The notes under the pieces were generated by a model. That model had not been told where the DNA came from. It did not search any database and saw only the letters and a program-made list of their open reading frames with translations. A DNA stretch of 64,000 nucleotides from the NCBI GenBank assembly GCA_023134705.1, contig JAGLUN010000051.1, forward strand, positions 3,362 through 67,361, written 5' to 3'. The position numbers were made by a program, and so were the translations under genes. The DNA is from Candidatus Omnitrophota bacterium. GTDB lineage: Bacteria; Omnitrophota; Gorgyraeia; Duberdicusellales; 4484-171. This document shows positions 4,381 through 61,706 of this stretch, in pieces. Positions within the stretch are counted from its first letter, which is position 1. The number at the start of each line of letters is the position of its first letter.

Positions 4381-4640
4381 AATTGATATTACGAGTATCT
4401 AGCATCCAGTATCGAGCTTCGCGTATCGCGTATCGAGCATCGCGTATTGCGTATCGAGTATCTAGCATCGAGGATCCAGGATCCAGGATCGAGGATCTAA
4501 AAGATTGTTCCTCATCTTTCGTCCCTCGTCCAAGTGAACGAAGTGAACGGTCGTCTCTCGTTCCTCGTTTTTCCTGTCCCCTCTCTTCTGTTCTCTAATT
4601 TTTATCTTCTAACGAGCATCTAGGATCAAGGATCTAAAAG
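4381..4640. repeat. Family-A composite intergenic repeat: CGCGTATCG-type octamer array, GATCCAGG/GATCGAGG units, then a CGTCCCTCGTC tract
   Basis: Tandem 8-9 bp units are read directly. The same composite recurs at 5521, 7834, 24496, 51271 and 57420. Confidence 0.8.
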
Positions 4641-4776
4641 GTTACATAAAGTTACTTAAAGTTACATAAGGTTACTTAAAGTTGCTTTAACGTGAAGCAA
4701 CCTTCCCTAACCTTAAGTAACGTTCTCAAAGTAACCTTCTTTAAGTAACCTTATTAGCCATCGACCATTGACTTCC
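4641..4776. repeat. Family-B element: imperfect palindrome built from GTTAC units phased every 10-11 bp, ending in GCCATCGACCATTGACTTCC
   Basis: The left arm is GTTACATAAAGTTACTTAAAGTTACATAAGGTTACTTAAAGTTGC. The centre is TTTAACGTGAAGCAACC. The right arm is the reverse-complement GTAACC units. Confidence 0.8.
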
Positions 4777-5636: not shown

Positions 5637-5672
5637 GTTACATAAAGTTGCATAAAGTTACATAAGGTTGCG
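5637..5672. repeat. Family-B forward arm (GGTTACATAAAGTTGCATAAAGTTACATAAGGTTGCG) on the left of the four-helix-bundle gene
   Basis: It has the same phased GTTAC units as 4641..4690. The matching reverse arm lies at 6108..6225, on the other side of the gene. Confidence 0.7.
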
Positions 5673-6128
5673 TTTTTTTCGCAGCTTTGCGCCGGGGACT
5701 TTCCATGTTCCTTCCCGCTCCATCTTATACAAAGATTTAAGATATTGTCCAGTCATATAAGTCGCGCTTTGAAATAATTTCGAAAATGCGTCGAATTCTT
5801 TTTTGCTAATCAATCCGTCATCTTTGCAATCTTCAACATCGCCGCTTAATTCTTCTAAAGAACCCAGACTAATTCTAATGCTATGGATATATTCACCTAG
5901 AGTTCCTTTTCTATATCCCTCCCGTATATTTTGTTTTGCGCTTCTTGCGGCATCTCTCATTTGCGAAATCAGTCTTAGATGTATTGTTGAAAATCTTTTC
6001 GTTATTTTATGAATGAACTTACGTATTTGATAAATATCCTGATAAAATTTTAGCTTTTCATAGGCCAGAGTTTCCCGTCTTTCGTGTATTCTTTCGTCCA
6101 TTTCCTCTCTAACCTTCCCTAACCTCAA
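5658..6128 (-). CDS. Four-helix-bundle protein of the 23S rRNA intervening-sequence-associated family
   Basis: It carries ARSAKQNIREGYRKGT and SIRISLGSLEEL, the family core motifs (compare SxxNIAEG ... SxxExxxxL). It is 156 aa. Confidence 0.65.
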   Translation of the reverse strand: MRLGKVREEMDERIHERRETLAYEKLKFYQDIYQIRKFIHKITKRFSTIHLRLISQMRDAARSAKQNIREGYRKGTLGEYIHSIRISLGSLEELSGDVEDCKDDGLISKKEFDAFSKLFQSATYMTGQYLKSLYKMEREGTWKVPGAKLRKKRNLM

Positions 6129-6225
6129 GTAACTTTCTTAACGTAACCCTCTCAACGTAACCTTCTCTAACTTTAAGTAACTTTCTCAATGTACCCTTCC
6201 CCATGTAACCTTATGTACCCTTCCC
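6108..6225. repeat. Family-B reverse arm (GTAACC/TAACC units) on the right of the four-helix-bundle gene
   Basis: The sequence AACCTTCCCTAACCTCAAGTAACTTTCTTAACGTAACCCTCTCAACGTAACCTTCTCTAAC is nearly identical to 7783..7830 and 53880..53960. Confidence 0.75.
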
Positions 6226-7690: not shown

Positions 7691-7833
7691 ATTACATAAA
7701 GTTATTTAAAGTTGCATTAACGTTACGTAACCTTCTTAACGCAACCTTCCCTAACCTTAAGTAACCTTCTCTAAGTAGCCTTCTCTACGTAACCTTCCCT
7801 AACCTCAAGTAACTTTCTTAACGTAACCTTCTC
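7691..7833. repeat. Family-B palindromic element with a short forward arm and a long reverse arm
   Basis: The sequence runs ATTACATAAAGTTATTTAAAGTTGCATTAACGTTACGTAACC, followed by phased GTAACC units. Confidence 0.8.
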
Positions 7834-7925
7834 ATCTCACTTGTATCTCTATATTCTTTGCGAGTATCTAGCATCGAGCATCCAGCATCTAAAGTGTTAT
7901 CCCTCATCTTTCGTCCCTCGTCTCT
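7834..7925. repeat. Family-A repeat segment (GCATCGAGCATCCAGCATC units, then CGTCCCTCGTC)
   Basis: It has the same units as 4396..4560. Confidence 0.7.
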
Positions 7926-17839: not shown

Positions 17840-18035
17840 ATAGGGGTTTTTGTTAGTATTTTTTTATACACGCAGATTTTTTCGTATCGCGTATCGAGTA
17901 TCGCGTATTGCGTAAAGAAAGTCGATAGTTAATAGCTGATAGTGGGAAAAGTAAGGCGTTAAATAGTTTTACGAGTTAGCGAGTTGAACGAGTTTAACGA
18001 GTTTTAATGAAAAGGATAGAGGTTTTTTATGAAAA

Positions 18036-18340: not shown

Positions 18341-18395
18341 CTTCACGCGATACGCAACATGCGATATGCGATACGCATTTACGCGATACGTTTTC
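18341..18395. repeat. Family-A CGCGATACG array overlapping the last codons of the PEP-CTERM gene
   Basis: It reads CACGCGATACGCAACATGCGATATGCGATACGCATTTACGCGATACG. Confidence 0.7.
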
Positions 18396-19210: not shown

Positions 19211-19756
19211 AAGGGGAATTTTGGGGGATGTTTTTTATAAACGATGCTTGATCCTCGATGCTGGATGCTAGATACTAGTAAAGAATAGAGATAAAAGTGA
19301 GATGATAAGGACGAGGGATGAGAAAAGCAAAAATTAGACTCAAGACTTAAGACTCAATAGAGAAAGTCATAAGGTCATAAAGCCAAAAGTTGCCGAAATT
19401 TGGGGGAAAATTGTAAAACTTTTCGAATGTGTAAAGGAAACCGACATGTTTCGGGGAAATATGCTTTGTGAAATGTACTTCCTGAAATACATGGAAATAT
19501 AGTTGAAATGAATAGAGATATATAGAAATATATAGTCCGCCAAGGCGGATCCGCCTCCGGCGGAAAATATATTGAAATATGGTTGAAATAAATTGTCTGC
19601 TATAGGCTTTTCCAAACAAAGGCAGATTCTTCTCGTATGTATGGCGGGAAGATCACGGGCATGCCCGTGGGATGTTCCATTAACTTAATTCCCCTCTCCC
19701 TCGCGCCTATTTTTAAATTGGGATTTTGTTTGTGAAGTATGTAGTGTGTGACATAA

Positions 19757-19795: not shown

Positions 19796-19856
19796 CTATT
19801 CTTCACGCATTAAGCGATGACCGAAGGGAATCCTGAGTATCCCCGACGGATACGCG

Positions 19857-20642: not shown

Positions 20643-20741
20643 ATGAGGATGGATAGACGCAAATTATGAGATACGGTGAGATTGATAGCAATAATATAGT
20701 GGAAATATATAGAAATAGGTTGAAATATAGTTGAAATACAA

Positions 20742-20868
20742 GGTTACTTAAGGTTAGGGAAGGTTACGTAGGAAAGTTACATTGAGAAGGTTGCTTAAAG
20801 AAGGTTACTTCACGTCAACGTAACCTTAAGTAACTTTAAGTAACTTTATGTAACCTTATTTTAATTAA
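20742..20868. repeat. Family-B palindromic element in the opposite orientation
   Basis: It reads AAGGTTACTTAAGGTTAGGGAAGGTTACGTAGG...CACGTCAACGTAACCTTAAGTAACTTTAAGTAACTTTATGTAACC. Confidence 0.75.
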
Positions 20869-20931
20869 CTTCTGCAATCTTTTTTATCTATTTTTCCCGC
20901 GATACACAATACGCGATACGCGTTACGTTTT

Positions 20932-24495: not shown

Positions 24496-24700
24496 GATTT
24501 TTTCGTATGCTTATCGCGTATCGAGTATCGCGTATCGAGCATCCAGTATCTAAAAGCTCGTCCCTCGTCTCTTCGTCCCTCATTTTTCGTTTTTCCTGTC
24601 CTCTATTCTCTGATTTCTGTCTTCCAACGAGTATCCAGCATCGAGCATCTAGCATCTAAAGTTGGCCATCGGTTCCTTCGCCCATTGACTTTCTTTTAAC
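24496..24700. repeat. Family-A composite repeat (CGCGTATCGAG array, CGTCCCTCGTC tract, GCATCGAGCATCTAGCATC units, then a variant of the GCCATCG...CCATTGAC terminus)
   Basis: It is read directly and is collinear with 4396..4776. Confidence 0.8.
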
Positions 24701-51270: not shown

Positions 51271-51420
51271 TCTCTATTATCGTATATCGTATCGCGTATT
51301 GCGTATCGAGTATCGAATATCTATCATCTACTCTCCATTTTCTGTTCTCGCCCTACATTTCTCGTCCTTCGTCTTTTCGTCTCTCGTCCCTCGTTTCTTA
51401 TCCCCCTTCACTTCCGTCCA
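51271..51420. repeat. Family-A composite repeat
   Basis: It has the CGTATCGCGTATTGCGTATCGAGTATCG array, then the TCGTCC/CTCGTCCCTCGT tract. Confidence 0.8.
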
Positions 51421-53740: not shown

Positions 53741-53990
53741 TTGCGTATCGTGTGAAGAAAGGTTACATAAAGTTACTTAAAGTTAAGGTTACTTAAAGTT
53801 ACATAAGGTTACTTAAAGTTGCTTAAGGTTGCGTTAACGTGAAGTAACCTTCTCAAAGCAACCTTCTCTAACCTTCCCTAACCTCAGGTAACTTTCCCAA
53901 AGTAACCTTCTCTGCGTAACCTTCTTAATGTAACCTTCTTAATGTAACCTTCTCTAAGTACCTTATCAGCTATCGACCATCGACTTCCTT
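53741..53990. repeat. Family-B element (the largest copy) with the terminus CAGCTATCGACCATCGACTTCC
   Basis: It reads AAGGTTACATAAAGTTACTTAAAGTTAAGGTTACTTAAAGTTACATAAGGTTACTTAAAGTTGCTTAAGGTTGCGTTAACGTGAAGTAACC, followed by nine reverse GTAACC/TAACC units. Confidence 0.85.
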
Positions 53991-55510: not shown

Positions 55511-55957
55511 TCATAGAACAAATCTTTTTATTCCTAATTTTAATTTTTCAACGTTAAAATTAAGCAATAACCCAACTTTAATTTTTGCCAATTTCATATA
55601 AGTTAGTATTTGAGCTTCGTGTATGCCTAAAATTTTATCAACGCTTTTTAATTCTATAATAAGCTTATTTGCTATAAGAATATCGATACGATATCCACAA
55701 TCTAATTTAATCCCGTTATATTCTATCGGTAAAGAACATTGTAGAGTAAACGGTATATCTGATAGTTTTAATTCATGAGCTAAACATTGTTCATAAGCCG
55801 ATTCAAGTAAGCCTGGTCCAAGAGCCCGGTGTACTTTTATGGCACAACCTATAACTTTATTTGATAATTCATCAAATTTTACTTCGTGTCCTTCGTGTTT
55901 AAAATATTTATTTACCGGCACTTCTTCCATACTCATCTTCCAGCCTCTGGATATCAT
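55511..55957 (-). CDS. GxxExxY-family protein (second copy)
   Basis: It carries LGPGLLESAYEQCL and the end GIKRFVL. The start is probably internal (M8 or M10), so the overlap with manC may be shorter. Confidence 0.6.
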   Translation of the reverse strand: MISRGWKMSMEEVPVNKYFKHEGHEVKFDELSNKVIGCAIKVHRALGPGLLESAYEQCLAHELKLSDIPFTLQCSLPIEYNGIKLDCGYRIDILIANKLIIELKSVDKILGIHEAQILTYMKLAKIKVGLLLNFNVEKLKLGIKRFVL

Positions 55958-57368
55958 CTTCTTCCAGATATTTTCCGCATTGCACCTCTATGATTTTTAA
56001 AGGGATATCTATGGGATTTTCCAAGCAATGAATGCCTTTTTTGGGGATATAAGTGCTTTCATTGGTGTTAAGGTAGAGAGTGTTTTTTTTGTTGGTTATT
56101 TTCGCTTCGCCTTCCACTACTACCCAGTGTTCGCTTCTTTGTATATGTCTCTGGAGGCTCAGTCTTTTATGGGGTAATACTTCCACAAGTTTAACTTTAA
56201 ATCCAATGCCGGAATTTAAAACCGTGTAAGTTCCCCAGGGCCTTTTTACTTTCGTATGAATTGAATGTTCTTTACGTCGGTTTTGTTTGAGGATACGGAC
56301 TATTTCTTTTACTTCTTCCGCTCTTGACTTGTCACAAACAAGAAGAGCGTCCGGCGTATCGCTGATAATCAGGTCTTTTAAGCCAATAGTAGCAATCAGC
56401 CTTGGCTCACCGAATACCGCTGTATTTTTGCTCCCTATATCTATGGAATCCGCCTGGATTGTATTACCGTTTTTATCTTTAGCTAAAAGTTCAGCTAAAG
56501 CCGGCCAGGAACCCAAATCCGACCAGCCAATATCTTTCGCGGCCACTACCGCGGTTCGCTTGGATTTCTCTAATATCCCGTAGTCAAGCGAAATAGCCGG
56601 TATTCGTTTCCATGTTTTTTCGTTTATATCCGCGGTATCTATTTTCTTTAGTTTCGCGGCAAGTTCCGGCAAATAAGCTGTTATTTCATCCAAAATGACT
56701 TTTGCTTTCCAGATAAACATTCCACTGTTCCAGAAATATTTTTTGTCCTTAAAATACTTCTCGGCTTTAACCCTATCCGGTTTTTCCACGAATTTCTCAA
56801 CACGATATGCTTTGTATTTCGCCTGTCTGTTTTTACTCTTTAGGTCTATGGTCTGTGGTCTATGGTCTATGGTCTGTATTTTAATATACCCATACCCTGT
56901 ATGAGGCATAGTTGGCGGAATCCCCAGAGTAACCAGATAATCTTTTCCTGCTAATATCTCTGCCTGTTTCAATACACCTAAAAAACTTGTGTTATTCGAA
57001 ATAAAGTGGTCTGAGGGGAAAACAAACATTATCGCGTCAGGGTCTTGTTTAATTATAAACCTTGCGGCTAAACCAATAGCCGGAGCAGTGTTTTTCCCTT
57101 CAGGCTCAAGAATGATATTCGCCTCCGGTATGAAAAAATTTTCAACCTGTCTTTTTATCTCGAAGTTATGCCGGCAATTGGCGACAATATAAATGTTTTT
57201 TGGCGCGATAAAGGGTGTAATCCGTTTCACGGTCTGTTGAAGTAAGGATTTATTGCCTTTGAGTTTTAAAAATTGCTTTGGTTCCAACTCCCGGCTTAAC
57301 GGCCAAAAACGGCTGCCTACTCCGCCAGCCAGAATTACCGCGTACTTGTTATTTGATATTTCGTTCAT
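55908..57368 (-). CDS. manC: Mannose-1-phosphate guanylyltransferase / mannose-6-phosphate isomerase (bifunctional, with a cupin C-terminus)
   Basis: It carries AVILAGGVGSRFWPLS and FVEKP. The C-terminal cupin carries GEAKI...YIPKGIHCLENP. Confidence 0.85.
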   Translation of the reverse strand: MNEISNNKYAVILAGGVGSRFWPLSRELEPKQFLKLKGNKSLLQQTVKRITPFIAPKNIYIVANCRHNFEIKRQVENFFIPEANIILEPEGKNTAPAIGLAARFIIKQDPDAIMFVFPSDHFISNNTSFLGVLKQAEILAGKDYLVTLGIPPTMPHTGYGYIKIQTIDHRPQTIDLKSKNRQAKYKAYRVEKFVEKPDRVKAEKYFKDKKYFWNSGMFIWKAKVILDEITAYLPELAAKLKKIDTADINEKTWKRIPAISLDYGILEKSKRTAVVAAKDIGWSDLGSWPALAELLAKDKNGNTIQADSIDIGSKNTAVFGEPRLIATIGLKDLIISDTPDALLVCDKSRAEEVKEIVRILKQNRRKEHSIHTKVKRPWGTYTVLNSGIGFKVKLVEVLPHKRLSLQRHIQRSEHWVVVEGEAKITNKKNTLYLNTNESTYIPKKGIHCLENPIDIPLKIIEVQCGKYLEEDDIQRLEDEYGRSAGK

Positions 57369-57620
57369 ATATCGTCAATGGTTAATAGTCGATAGTCAAT
57401 GGTCGATAGTCTATGGGGAGAAAGTAACGCGTATTGCGTATCCTTCGGGGATACTCAGGATTCTCTCCTTCGACTGTGCTCAGGACAAGTTTCGGTCATC
57501 GCATATCGAGCATTCAGCATCCAAACTTTCTGACTTCTGTCCTCTGACTTCTGAAGCCTGTCTCCTCCCACTTCTCTATCGAGCATCTAAACTTTCTATT
57601 TACTGCCTTCTTCCCTCTGA
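57361..57620. repeat. Family-A composite repeat with GTCGATAGTCAATGG units
   Basis: It has TCGTCAATGGTTAATAGTCGATAGTCAATGGTCGATAGTCTATGG, then CGTATTGCGTATCC and GAGCATTCAGCATCC/GAGCATCTAAAC units. Confidence 0.75.
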
Positions 57621-58039: not shown

Positions 58040-58140
58040 ATTGAAATATGCTTCGCGAAATATACTTCGTGAAATATACTTCATGAAATATATAGATATA
58101 GATAGAAATAAATGGAAATATGTTGAAATAAATAGTCCGC
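58040..58140 (-). promoter_or_regulatory. GAAATAT direct-repeat block (14-bp period) upstream of the small PEP-CTERM gene, homologous to the blocks at 18036 and 19413
   Basis: It reads CGCGAAATATACTTCGTGAAATATACTTCATGAAATATATAG...GGAAATATGTTGAAATAAATAGTCCGCCATTGGCGG. Confidence 0.45.
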
Positions 58141-58179: not shown

Positions 58180-58578
58180 TTAATCTTCATTTTTGGCCTT
58201 AGTTTTTGATTTGTATGTTGAACTTATAAAGTTATTTAATTTGATTGATAATTTCTTGCTCAATTTTTCCATTTTGTTAAAAATATCTTTATCGATAATC
58301 TTTCGTTCATGGAGTAAAGATAACCAATGTTCACACGATTCACTTAAAGACGCACGGCTGGTATAATAGAACTTAATCCTATCTAAGAAGTGATATCTTT
58401 TATACCCTTCAGCAATGTTTGCCCCTACAGAATCGATAGATTCAATAAATTGATCTCCCATAATCTTCTTTTCATGCCAATTCAATGCGCTATAGATTTC
58501 CCATGCAATTCCTGATAATTCTCTGGATATCCTGTAAACCTCTAAATCCTTCAGTTCTATATATTTCTTTATATCCAT
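58180..58578 (-). CDS. Four-helix-bundle protein (23S IVS-associated family), second copy
   Basis: It carries SVGANIAEGYKRYH and YYTSRASLSESCEHW. It is 132 aa. Confidence 0.65.
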   Translation of the reverse strand: MDIKKYIELKDLEVYRISRELSGIAWEIYSALNWHEKKIMGDQFIESIDSVGANIAEGYKRYHFLDRIKFYYTSRASLSESCEHWLSLLHERKIIDKDIFNKMEKLSKKLSIKLNNFISSTYKSKTKAKNED

Positions 58579-58603
58579 TCTATATCTATATATTGATATA
58601 TCT

Positions 58604-59581
58604 CTACCCTTTCACCAGTTGGCTTTTAAAATATTCGACTGTTCTCCTAAGGCCTTGTTCAAAATCAACTATGGGTTTGAAGCCAAGCATTGACTTGATT
58701 TTAGAAACATCGGCTAAGGTTTTGAATACGTCTCCTTTGCGTACAGGTAAAAATTCCGGTTGGATATTTTTGCCGATGATTTTATTGAGTGAGTCAACTA
58801 TGCTTAATACAGTGTTGTCTTTTCCGTTGGCAACGTTAAGAATCGTATTGCGTATCGCGTATTGCGTATCGCGTAAAGGGACGGTGGCGGCAAGGATGTT
58901 GGCTTCAACTACGTTATCAATATAAGTAAAATCACGGGATTGTTTGCCATTACCAAAAATCGGCGGTTGTTCATTATTAAGAATGCAATGGATAAATTTA
59001 GGGATAACTACAGCGTATTCGTCGTCTAATGCCTGCCTTGGGCCGAACACGTTAAAGTAACGCAGGCTTACTGTTTCCAGGCCGAAGTTCTCGCTGAAAA
59101 TCCGGCAGTAATATTCACCGGCTAATTTAGTCAAAGCGTAAGGAGAAATAAGTAACGGATAGGCGGTTTCCTTCTCAGGGAATTTGTCGGTATCTCCATA
59201 AACAGAACTTGATGACGCAAAGACCAAACGTTTCGTCCCGCACTCTCCACCGGCTTTAAGCATATTTAAAGTGCCATTAATATTTACCTCGTTATATTCA
59301 TAAGGGTTATTCATTGATTTAGGTACACTGCGTAAGGCGGCCTGGTGGAATATAATTTCGATACCTTTACAGGCTCTTAGACAAGTATCATAGTCACAGA
59401 TATCGCCTCTGATTAGTCGATAGTCGATGGCCGATTGTCCATAGCTGGATACAAAAGAGAGGTTCTCTTCTTTTCCGGAAGAGAAGTTATCAAGTACAAC
59501 CACGTCATTTCCTTCCTTCAGTAATCGTTCAACAATATGTGAACCGATAAATCCTGCTCCGCCGGTTACCAATGCTTTCAT
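58604..59581 (-). CDS. NAD-dependent UDP-sugar 4-epimerase (GalE/WbpP-like extended SDR)
   Basis: It carries ALVTGGAGFIGSH and YALTKLAGE and is 325 aa. The codons 58849..58880 are a family-A repeat unit (see findings). Confidence 0.75.
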   Translation of the reverse strand: MKALVTGGAGFIGSHIVERLLKEGNDVVVLDNFSSGKEENLSFVSSYGQSAIDYRLIRGDICDYDTCLRACKGIEIIFHQAALRSVPKSMNNPYEYNEVNINGTLNMLKAGGECGTKRLVFASSSSVYGDTDKFPEKETAYPLLISPYALTKLAGEYYCRIFSENFGLETVSLRYFNVFGPRQALDDEYAVVIPKFIHCILNNEQPPIFGNGKQSRDFTYIDNVVEANILAATVPLRDTQYAIRNTILNVANGKDNTVLSIVDSLNKIIGKNIQPEFLPVRKGDVFKTLADVSKIKSMLGFKPIVDFEQGLRRTVEYFKSQLVKG

Positions 59582-59832
59582 TGTTTTCTCCTTATTTAAT
59601 AGATATTGTCAAAATTATTTAAGTTTAAATAACCAATCACCAAGATATACCCTTACGGGCACAGGCAAGATACAAACAAATTCCAATCTTCAATAATCAA
59701 TAACCAAAATACCTGATTTTGTTGAATTTTTTGGTTATTGAAATTTGGTCATTGGTTATTGTTTGGTTATTGTTTCTTGTGTCTTGGTTATTCATTCCTT
59801 CTGTGCCCTCTGTGGTTTTTTCATAACTTATC

Positions 59833-60567: not shown

Positions 60568-60590
60568 AAGTTTCGTATCCTCCGGGAATA

Positions 60591-60800
60591 CTCAGGATTC
60601 CCTTCGGTCATTTCGTATTGCGTATCGCGTATCGCGTATTGCGTTATAAATTCCTTTTACTAACTTTATACCTTTTTTCCAAACTCTTAAATCTCTAAAA
60701 TATTTTATTTTGTCTTCCATTTTGTCATATTTGTGTTTTGTACGCGATACGCGATACTCGTTACGCGATACGCTATTATTGCTTTCATAAATTTCGTATT
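60591..60800. repeat. Family-A arrays in inverted orientation bracketing a 5' fragment (about 60650..60740) of a four-helix-bundle gene
   Basis: 60611..60645 reads CGTATTGCGTATCGCGTATCGCGTATTGCG. 60745..60790 reads GTACGCGATACGCGATACTCGTTACGCGATACG. 60650..60740 is about 90 percent identical to 61092..61180. Confidence 0.75.
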
Positions 60801-60803
60801 GCG

Positions 60804-61163
60804 TTATAATTTTTTTGCTAAATTAGTAATCATTCTACAAATATGGTCGATTATTTCTGTTAATTCGTTTTCTTTGTCTTCTTTTATGTAAGACAATTCT
60901 TTTGTAATTATCACCTGGGTTTCTAATTCCGCGCAGGAACCTAAAGATATATTGAGAAATTGTTTGTATTCTTTGTTATGTTTTCGTCTAAAACCCTCTG
61001 CTATGTTAGAAGGGATAGAAATGGCACATCTTCTCATTTGAGAAGAAAGTCCATATTGTTCTTCTTTAGGGAAACTTTTCGTTGTTTTATAAATTTCTTT
61101 TACTAGCTCTATACCTTTTTTCCAAACTCTTAAATCTCTAAAACGTCTTATTTTGTCTTCCAT
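60804..61163 (-). CDS. Four-helix-bundle protein (23S IVS-associated family), third copy
   Basis: It carries RRCAISIPSNIAEGFRRKH and NISLGSCAELETQ. It is 119 aa. Confidence 0.7.
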   Translation of the reverse strand: MEDKIRRFRDLRVWKKGIELVKEIYKTTKSFPKEEQYGLSSQMRRCAISIPSNIAEGFRRKHNKEYKQFLNISLGSCAELETQVIITKELSYIKEDKENELTEIIDHICRMITNLAKKL

Positions 61164-61214
61164 ATTGTCATATTTGTTTGTACGCGATACGCAATACGCG
61201 TTACGCGATACGAA

Positions 61215-61706
61215 TCACGCGATACGCGTTACAATATTTTTAAAGAATATAATTGCTCCCACAATTACCGCGTTTATTGAGGCTAAGAGGACCCCGGCAG
61301 CGGCAATGTCTTTAACCAGTTTAACCGAAGGATGATATTTCTTGCCGTTTAAAAAGTCTAAGCTTAACTCTAAAGCCGTGTTAATAATTTCACAAGCAAT
61401 AACAAAGATCATGGCTAAAAACAAAATTGCCATTTCTAAATAAGAAACCTTAATCAAAAGACTTAAGACAATGACCGATAATCCCGTAATAATATGTATA
61501 CGGATGTTCCTTTGGCTTTTTAAAGCGAATTTAAGCCCTTCCCAGGCACAAACAAAGCTGCTCAATAAATTTCTTCGTTTATTAAAAATATTTAAGGGAT
61601 AATTGTTAACCTCTAATGAAGAAGCATTAGCGGTTAAGGGATTAGGTCCGGAATGATTATTTTTTACAACTTCATCCATCCCTTGACCAAGATTAATCTC
61701 CGGCAT
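61215..61706 (-). CDS. dgkA: Diacylglycerol/undecaprenol kinase (DgkA family)
   Basis: It carries EIINTALELSLDF and VKDIAAAGVLLASINAVIVG, and has three transmembrane helices. The start is assigned at the internal Met to avoid the upstream overlap. The ORF could extend to 61772. Confidence 0.55.
   Translation of the reverse strand: MPEINLGQGMDEVVKNNHSGPNPLTANASSLEVNNYPLNIFNKRRNLLSSFVCAWEGLKFALKSQRNIRIHIITGLSVIVLSLLIKVSYLEMAILFLAMIFVIACEIINTALELSLDFLNGKKYHPSVKLVKDIAAAGVLLASINAVIVGAIIFFKNIVTRIA

Follow-up and report, generated by a model that had tools for sequence, protein, structure and literature searches.

The in-frame repeat of the epimerase gene

The window analysed here, a stretch of 64,000 nt from a metagenome-assembled genome (MAG) of a Candidatus Omnitrophota bacterium, contains a gene for a predicted nucleotide-sugar 4-epimerase which carries, inside its open reading frame (ORF), a tandem array of a 7 nt unit. 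The same repeat, with the consensus CGTATYG and in the following called family A, is the main and commonest intergenic repeat family of this genome. The gene and the array are located as follows.

58604..59581, minus strand: gene for an extended short-chain dehydrogenase/reductase (SDR) of the nucleotide-sugar 4-epimerase type, WbpP/WbgU/TviC-like, 325 aa
58844..58875, minus strand: in-frame family-A heptamer array inside the epimerase coding sequence ('site 2')

On the plus strand the array reads CGTATTGCGTATCGCGTATTGCGTATCGCGTA, and this exact 32-mer occurs only once in the window. The initial annotation had placed it at 58849..58880, which is shifted by +5 nt, as positions 58876..58880 are AAGGG. 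The sense strand consists of two alternating unit variants, TACGCGA and TACGCAA, in the order TACGCGA TACGCAA TACGCGA TACGCAA TACG, and hence holds more than three head-to-tail copies of a 7 nt unit. Tandem Repeats Finder describes the tract either with a period of 7 (4.6 copies, 88% matches) or with a period of 14 and the unit CGTATTGCGTATCG (2.3 copies, 100% matches). There are no internal inverted repeats in this 32 nt direct tandem tract.

The tract codes for residues 236-246 of the protein, LRDTQYAIRNT, with the frame open. The minus-strand reading is C CCT TTA CGC GAT ACG CAA TAC GCG ATA CGC AAT ACG ATT, in which the codons CCT to ACG correspond to P235-T246 and the next residue is I. 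The peptide RDTQYAIRNT had thus been read correctly in the initial annotation (residues 237-246), as had the preservation of the reading frame, since the tract lies within an open ORF of 325 aa. As 7 is not divisible by 3, successive units are translated in different frames, all three in turn, which results in a peptide with a period of seven residues (RDTQYAI RNT...).

In its composition the tract is foreign to the gene. CpG dinucleotides reach a frequency of 0.226, whereas the remainder of the gene has 0.050 and the window 0.030, and rare codons are used, CGC accounting for 8% of the Arg codons and ACG for 11% of the Thr codons. The mean relative synonymous codon usage is nearly equal for the loop (1.03) and the gene (1.13), so that what counts here is solely the excess of CpG and the presence of individual rare codons.

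Family A in the window

The in-gene copy had been called indistinguishable from the intergenic arrays, and indeed it has exact 21-mers in common with arrays at 51288-51308 and 60614-60641. A search with (CGTATYG)x3, allowing up to 2 mismatches, gave 22 matches in 9 arrays within the window, where 0.00 matches are expected according to 100 dinucleotide-preserving shuffles of the window. Eight of the nine arrays are intergenic, while non-ORF DNA makes up 12.3% of the window (binomial P ~4e-7). Family A therefore is a dispersed heptanucleotide family with several, mostly intergenic arrays; it is strongly excluded from coding DNA, and with such a distribution the copy inside the epimerase gene is a real exception. 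The intergenic arrays are:

60609..60647: family-A array carrying both unit variants of the in-gene tract
60741..60773: inverted family-A array with 88% complementarity to the in-gene tract over 32 nt
61181..61232: inverted family-A array, 5' arm of the four-helix-bundle gene 60804..61163
51278..51321: family-A array with an exact 21-mer in common with the in-gene tract
24509..24539: family-A array
20898..20927: inverted family-A array
17883..17914: family-A array, paired with an inverted degenerate array at 18345-18390
4419..4462: family-A array within a composite repeat island

Position of the repeat in the protein

A protein from a MAG annotated as Candidatus Omnitrophica (P0001) is 100% identical to the epimerase of the window. 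A GGAG element is found 9 nt upstream of the ATG. The NAD-binding motif GxxGxxG is present as G7-G-A-G10-F-I-G13 and is invariant in an alignment of 56 sequences, and S123-S126 and Y148-A-L-T-K152 align to the catalytic motifs SSS and SPYAVTK of WbpP (1sb8). The initial annotation had held that the gene is not inactivated by the repeat; the ORF is uninterrupted, GxxGxxG, Ser and YxxxK have all been kept, and the enzyme probably stays active. An AlphaFold2 model (predicted local distance difference test score, pLDDT, 84; predicted template modelling score, pTM, 0.87) superimposes on WbpP 1sb8 with a template modelling (TM) score of 0.91 and a root mean square deviation of 2.3 A; the next structural matches are WbgU, the Bordetella capsule-biosynthesis protein 9pmn and 6dnt. 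Among the proteins of solved structure, 6dnt, WbpP 1sb8 and WbgU are the best relatives. The scores against the equivalog models of TviC (NF011728, 232.6 bits, cut-off 760) and GalE (TIGR01179, 190.6 bits, cut-off 262.3) both remain below the cut-off, therefore no substrate can be assigned.

In the model, residues 234-245 form the coil between a helix (221-233) and a strand (246-250), which places the tract in a loop, as had been suggested, and the repeat encodes essentially the whole of this coil. Judged by the known architecture of GalE and WbpP, the loop is probably peripheral to the active site. A shorter, unrelated loop in related epimerases, also part of the initial description, is indeed what the homologues have: the loop of 6dnt is shorter by 8 residues and that of WbpP by about 6, and 66 of the 120 closest homologues possess a 7-residue loop, typically TPGIKHE. 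The tract is thus an insertion relative to these homologues. Longer loops of up to 35 residues occur at site 2 in 49-54 of the 120.

A second loop of the same protein, the coil that connects helix 38-46 with strand 54-59, is occupied by a different heptamer, and two features of the window belong to it:

59414..59446, minus strand: in-frame degenerate heptamer tract ('site 1'), residues 46-56 SYGQSAIDYRL of the epimerase
57385..57420: intergenic (ACTATCG/ACCATTG)n array upstream of manC, of the same family as the site 1 tract

The sense strand at site 1 reads GCTATGG ACAATCG GCCATCG ACTATCG ACTA, an (ATCGACT)-type sequence related to the array 57385-57420. Among the homologues the inserts at both sites repeat their residues at a lag of 7; at site 2 the lag-7 identity is 16.8%, whereas other lags, and the remainder of the protein, give about 5%. 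This periodicity follows from the translation of a 7 nt unit in three frames. Mapping of the loop states by Fitch parsimony onto a neighbour-joining tree gave minima of 23 changes for site 2 and 14 for site 1, step counts which are rough since the tree is poorly resolved.

The ends of the protein vary as well. Tails beyond residue 324 exist in 47 of the 120 homologues and N-terminal extensions in 34. The variable C-terminal tail (for instance ...QRIVNRV; L164, 1110-1150) is coded by a heptamer array, which is at the same time the 5' arm of a four-helix-bundle cassette located directly downstream of the epimerase.

A third in-frame array is found in the window, in the neighbouring manC-like gene:

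55908..57368, minus strand: mannose-1-phosphate guanylyltransferase / mannose-6-phosphate isomerase gene (manC-like)
56843..56878, minus strand: in-frame heptamer array in this gene, encoding QTIDHRPQTID

It consists of five units of the (ATAGACC/ACAGACC) type, ACAGACC ATAGACC ATAGACC ACAGACC ATAGACC, and the ACAGACC variant stands exactly where ATAGACC would place a TAG in frame. This array, too, lies in a variable loop; it is absent from four orthologues, in which the loop is shorter by 8-16 residues.

Arrays at the same two loops in orthologues

The DNA of orthologues was inspected in 30-odd Omnitrophota loci, coming from independent assemblies of ENA, JGI and NCBI. The comparison with orthologues proposed in the initial annotation spoke for a repeat insertion but not for a private one: four relatives with 77-84% amino acid identity (L081, L083, L085 and L082) also carry an array at site 2, which in three of the four has an equal length of 32 nt. 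It is perfect in L083, (TACGCAA)x4.6, and in L085, (TACACAA)x4, and decayed in L081, where the 14.7 kb contig is free of intergenic arrays. In other loci the same loop holds other units: (TACGAGA) followed by (GCTAAYC) in L001, CTACGAC in L088, ACACCCT in L087, ATCGACT in L097, CTCAATA in L166, and (AAGTCAC)x4 followed by family A in L169. Site 1 is filled by about 130 nt of (TACGCAA)n in L082, about 90 nt of (GCTAACC/GCTATCC)n in L001 and (CTATGAS)n in L083 and L090.

Three lines of evidence bear on how these arrays are maintained. First, fourfold-degenerate sites of the window gene are identical to those of L081, L082, L083 and L085 in only 32-38% of cases and thus saturated. In spite of this, the window, L083 and L085 have arrays of perfect periodicity whose units differ in concert, with every unit changed (TACGCGA/TACGCAA in the window, TACGCAA in L083, TACACAA in L085). 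It follows that the arrays were regenerated or homogenised, for which neighbouring arrays are the obvious partners. Second, the in-gene unit is, contig by contig, that of the arrays adjoining the gene. Ten-mers of the loops recur in the flanks of their own contig at 9.7 per kb, a density that falls to 2.6 per kb when the contigs are permuted, this latter value itself being raised by the presence of related contigs; the chance level is about 0.15 per kb, and 0 of 20,000 permutations reached the observed match. Ten-mers from the conserved core of the gene recur in the flanks at the chance level for their number. Third, two gene pairs with 90-91% identical DNA differ by recent 33 nt in-frame indels exactly at the loop sites. 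The one between L001 and L164 corresponds to a single 33 nt higher-order unit (4x7+5 nt, 11 codons, LSANRYPLTTN; L001, 2023-2110), which can be gained or lost without a frame shift, and the one between L167 and L166 is a GCGAGC-rich insert abutting the array.

Arrays shared with orthologues could look like ordinary divergence, the alternative by which the initial annotation had wished its proposal to be judged, but persisting periodicity at saturated synonymous divergence, concerted unit changes and the agreement of the units with the intergenic arrays of each genome speak for repeat insertion. Ordinary divergence, a chance likeness or an assembly artefact, without any repeat insertion, we regard as extremely improbable. 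The source is a MAG, repeats can mislead assemblers, and two metagenome contigs (L095 and L097) break at site 1; but shuffled sequence produced not a single match, a tract of 32 nt is shorter than a sequencing read, and the ENA, JGI and NCBI assemblies agree in showing in-frame arrays at the same two codon positions. That L095 and L097 end exactly at site 1 of the epimerase would be expected if arrays at this site tangle short-read assembly.

The diversity of the loops also bears on the idea that the peptide itself is selected, for instance for oligomer contacts or partner binding, and that the periodicity of the DNA is a by-product. The loop length and an ...IRNT motif are common to several orthologues. 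Against this, the loop peptides are extremely diverse, with the 7-residue period as their sole common feature, the codons used are rare and CpG-rich, and the repeat is perfect in the DNA although selection at the protein level would permit synonymous drift there. We consider selection for the peptide very unlikely.

Not all inserts at the two loops are heptamer arrays. In L082 and L168 one or two copies of the CCTGAGTATCCCCGAAGG composite are found inside the site 2 array (L082, 10813-10870). This composite is intergenic in the window (57442-57459 and 60579-60596 on the minus strand, 19832-19849 on the plus strand), and its junction to the array in L082 and L168 is the same as that of the intergenic copy 57442-57459 to a family-A array. 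It occurs in frame once more in the nucleotidyltransferase gene of L082 (8594-9415), within an insert of 29 residues. In L084 (366-1400) a palindromic element of about 55 nt, AAACTGTTTCC...GGAAACTGTTT with the peptide QKLFPSELKHSHNQETV, is located in frame at both epimerase loops and recurs in the flank; altogether, palindromic inserts at the epimerase loops were seen in L084, L167 and L082. An Elusimicrobiota MAG (L015, 10140-10215) has at site 1 an in-frame insertion of 75 nt with two GC-rich hairpins and an in-frame TAA, which could mark a pseudogene or an element that is removed or read through.

The genomic neighbourhood and the question of frame-dependent switching

The epimerase belongs to a co-directional block of nucleotide-sugar genes, with neighbours in an exopolysaccharide cluster. 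The order is phosphomannomutase, hexapeptide acyltransferase, diacylglycerol kinase, four-helix-bundle gene, nucleotidyltransferase, epimerase, second four-helix-bundle gene, PEP-CTERM protein, ManC, PD-(D/E)XK protein and UDP-glucose dehydrogenase; the order nucleotidyltransferase-epimerase is kept in L081 and L082. The small PD-(D/E)XK_3 gene (PF13366, 55511-55957) overlaps the 3' end of manC and looks like a stand-alone cassette inserted into the operon, similar to the four-helix-bundle genes.

Such surroundings bring to mind a contingency locus, in which the gain or loss of 7 nt units would shift the frame and switch off a surface-polysaccharide gene, as in neuO (PMC13001214). Several features agree with this: the unit is not a multiple of 3 and lies inside a coding sequence, the epimerase and manC make nucleotide-sugar precursors in an exopolysaccharide cluster, and site 1 is near the 5' end of the gene, with about 130 nt of arrays there in L082. 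On the other hand, the tract is short, 4.6 mixed units compared with the 3-53 repeats of neuO, and all 12 repeat-bearing loci found by tblastn, which would recover broken ORFs as well, are in frame, without a single out-of-frame allele; were two thirds of the alleles off, this would have a probability of P ~2e-6. Close relatives differ by in-frame 33 nt indels only, the length of 32 nt is conserved across lineages with saturated synonymous sites, and such arrays are also abundant between genes, where there is no frame to be shifted. A switching function is therefore quite unlikely in our opinion.

Four-helix-bundle cassettes and complementary arrays

Two genes of the block are themselves enclosed by inverted repeats:

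60804..61163, minus strand: four-helix-bundle gene (PF05635, 23S rRNA intervening-sequence protein, Avd-like), flanked by inverted family-A arrays
58180..58578, minus strand: second four-helix-bundle gene, directly downstream of the epimerase

The arms of the second gene are AT-rich short-repeat sequences at 58087-58102 and 58579-58594, 16 nt long, inverted and 100% complementary. Between them and the first gene, a deleted cassette was found at 60609-60773, in which the family-A arms still bracket a remnant of 30 codons; the array 60609..60647 is the 3' arm of this remnant and lies upstream of the nucleotidyltransferase gene.

This arrangement is not restricted to the window. In the window and in further loci from Omnitrophota, Aminicenantia, Planctomycetota and unclassified bacteria, hence in several phyla, PF05635/TIGR02436 genes are bracketed by inverted short tandem arrays, mostly of 7-mers (L082, 8037-8573 and 9435-9970; L166, 7500-8000; L008, 7650-8110; L037, 7440-7900; L152, 3300-3850). 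The unit of the arms is specific for the cassette: family A, AAGTCAC, GAGTATT, CAGGYAW, CGTCTAT, and an 8-mer in L152. Period-7 arrays occur 3.9 times per 10 kb in loci with a four-helix-bundle gene and 0.34 times in those without, a roughly 11-fold difference which is confounded by taxonomy. The cassettes resemble the stem-flanked intervening sequences (IVS) to which the PF05635 family owes its name. A literature search for repeats around PF05635/TIGR02436 genes yielded nothing specific.

The arms are complementary to the in-gene tract, positions 61181-61216 to 58840-58875 over 36 nt (92%). The tract may accordingly be a cis element at the RNA or DNA level, pairing with complementary cassette arrays on the same transcript or binding the factor of these arrays; such pairing might lead to RNase III-type processing or to translational control. 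In addition to 61181-61216, the region 60741-60772 is complementary (88%), the complementary regions are all on the same strand of the co-directional gene block, inverted family-A pairs surround four-helix-bundle genes in several genomes, the in-gene units track the neighbouring arrays, and the length of the tract is conserved. Many orthologues without any insert at this loop, however, keep the gene neighbourhood, the loops accept unrelated types of repeats, for which tolerance is a better explanation than a specific function, and no Rfam family matches the window. A cis-acting function appears unlikely to us on this balance.

The heptamer arrays could also be something other than plain microsatellites. 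They would then be the arms of IVS-like cassettes with Avd-like genes, and a dedicated process would copy array sequence from site to site, by which the arms stay complementary, and rewrite the loops of nearby enzymes, possibly with participation of the four-helix-bundle protein or of RNA pairing between the arms; the same process would write the current unit of the genome into permissive loops of genes close by. The need for complementary cassette arms suggests a pressure that may drive the concerted evolution of the gene loops. If this were true, enzyme loops would be continuously rewritten by a repeat-homogenising system of several phyla, but we give such a process only a small chance.

Two related candidates were rejected. 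The tract might be the scar left by the insertion of a whole four-helix-bundle cassette, for which no support exists, as none of the orthologues has a cassette inside the gene. A diversity-generating retroelement (DGR) was considered because Avd-like four-helix-bundle genes adjoin the epimerase; the variation, though, is a G/A alternation within a microsatellite, and a pair of template and variable repeats with differences at adenines is missing. No reverse transcriptase was found among ten neighbouring proteins, a scan which falls short of the whole window, nor in the called genes of L081, L082, L164, L166, L168 and L169.

Probable explanation: a tolerated microsatellite under a reading-frame filter

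We consider it rather probable that the tract is a tolerated family-A microsatellite which is kept uniform by slippage or recombination and filtered for frame. Arrays would arise and turn over through mispairing of slipped strands, through template switching or through short-patch recombination with arrays in the vicinity that have the same unit, and this turnover would keep each array uniform within itself and similar to its neighbours. Within genes, selection would remove those variants that shift the frame, create a stop codon or disturb the fold, so that survivors would be limited to a few loops (residues 46-56 and 234-246) and to lengths which preserve the frame. The encoded peptide would be a tolerated passenger and not a selected feature, and the tract is presumably without a function of its own. 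Three observations support the filter, namely the exclusion of the arrays from coding DNA, their positions in loops and the stop-avoiding unit variants; the molecular mechanism of homogenisation we infer from the pattern of the arrays.

Several points weigh against this explanation. Slippage or conversion is, for this MAG, deduced from the comparison of genomes. The tracts of the window, L081 and L083 at site 2 are all 32 nt long, which is odd for a tract that expands and contracts; this constant length could mean selection on loop length or on the tract. That inserts recur at exactly two loops might be due to targeting instead of filtering, and the 92% complementarity over 36 nt to a cassette arm on the same strand leaves room for a role at the RNA level. 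The epimerase activity, finally, is itself a prediction from the sequence.

A tolerated, frame-filtered microsatellite is a case in which non-coding repeat DNA turns into protein sequence in an uncultured phylum, and in the loops the turnover of repeats, as well as the concerted evolution of coding with non-coding DNA, is naturally recorded. Such tracts explain why Omnitrophota proteins vary in length and have odd loops of low complexity; in practice, they can interrupt assemblies and lead alignments and trees astray. Furthermore, the link between arrays and cassettes is a testable lead on the role of the four-helix-bundle genes and repeats, which are very common and unexplained.

Other repeats in the window

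Additional repeats exist between the genes. The composite motif seen in the epimerase loop of L082 and L168, ACCGAAGG..CCTGAGTATYCCCGRAGGATACG, is located beside heptamer arrays just upstream of genes, and in one copy GGAGG stands 9 nt before an ATG, resembling a ribosome-binding site. Further tandem families have periods of 10, 14, 20 and 48 nt (GTTACATAAA, GTAACCTTCTCAAT and relatives) and form composite islands together with heptamer arrays (4641-4752, 5637-5669, 6110-6222, 7725-7834, 20740-20858 and 53759-53968). Between the nucleotidyltransferase and epimerase genes there is a (TTGGTCA/TTGGTTA)n array at 59726-59792, which constitutes an inverted repeat with 59666-59709 (44 nt, 73% complementary). 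Searches for Rfam families and for tRNAs in the window were negative.

Comparison with known repeat systems

The in-gene tract resembles the Rickettsia palindromic elements (RPEs) and intragenic MITEs (miniature transposable elements with inverted repeats) in that a dispersed and mostly intergenic family is also found in frame in metabolic genes. RPEs sit at fold-compatible positions of unrelated metabolic genes, to which they add a peptide segment while the gene is kept; they are palindromic, about 150 bp long and inserted as units (review PMC10969869). Family A likewise is both intergenic and in frame at fold-compatible sites. The 32 nt tract, in contrast, is not a discrete palindromic unit of about 100-150 bp or one bounded by terminal inverted repeats, and neither a target-site duplication nor a transposition signature was seen at it. 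It shares its unit with the neighbouring arrays, changes in concert with them and is read in three frames, unlike RPEs. Without a palindromic unit, the tract thus stands outside the RPE/MITE kind. The palindromic inserts of L084, L167 and L082 are exactly of the RPE type.

With neuO of the Escherichia coli K1 phage CUS-3 the tract has in common that a 7 nt tandem repeat lies in a surface-polysaccharide coding sequence, that translation needs a frame-keeping length and that three units give one heptad of peptide. There, (AAGACTC)n at the 5' end of the gene comprises 3-53 units, most commonly 20, and 65.6% of the genomes are out of frame (PMC13001214). Here, the array occupies an internal loop and was in frame in every examined locus, and its unit stems from a genome-wide intergenic family. 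Since out-of-frame alleles were not seen and the tract is short, it falls outside the contingency-locus kind. A short (AAGACTC)n array at 19336-19357 of the window has a unit identical to the phase-variable tract of neuO, probably by coincidence.

Dispersed heptamer families have been described in other phyla. The parts of two reports considered here mention TAACTGA direct repeats in Beggiatoaceae, Cyanobacteria and Bacteroidetes (PMC4679880) and GGGNATC-type repeats in Xanthomonas and Nostoc together with heptanucleotides of Calothrix (PMC4692102). According to these passages, such families are enriched between genes and near start and stop codons and depleted in ORFs (PMC4679880, PMC4692102), and TAACTGA repeats in reverse orientation are translated into peptides with a 7-residue period (PMC4679880). 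As far as they are covered there, these families, like those of the window, are genome-wide short tandem repeats of 7 nt; they have one dominant unit per lineage, whereas in the present case numerous units exist side by side and related genomes differ in them. The recurrent occupation of two loops and the concerted change with the flanks are not described in the passages concerned of PMC4679880 and PMC4692102. A literature search for heptanucleotide repeats in Omnitrophota found nothing specific.

The Borg elements of Methanoperedens carry perfect tandem repeats, both intergenic and intragenic; the intragenic ones supply proteins with disordered segments, evolve fast and, as far as is known, have units that are multiples of 3 nt. 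In the Omnitrophota the unit is 7 nt instead, and only total lengths or higher-order units divisible by 3 survive, for instance the 33 nt unit of L001. What appears to be new is the combination of a 7 nt array, the recurrent occupation of the same two loops across the phylum and the change in concert with the flanks.

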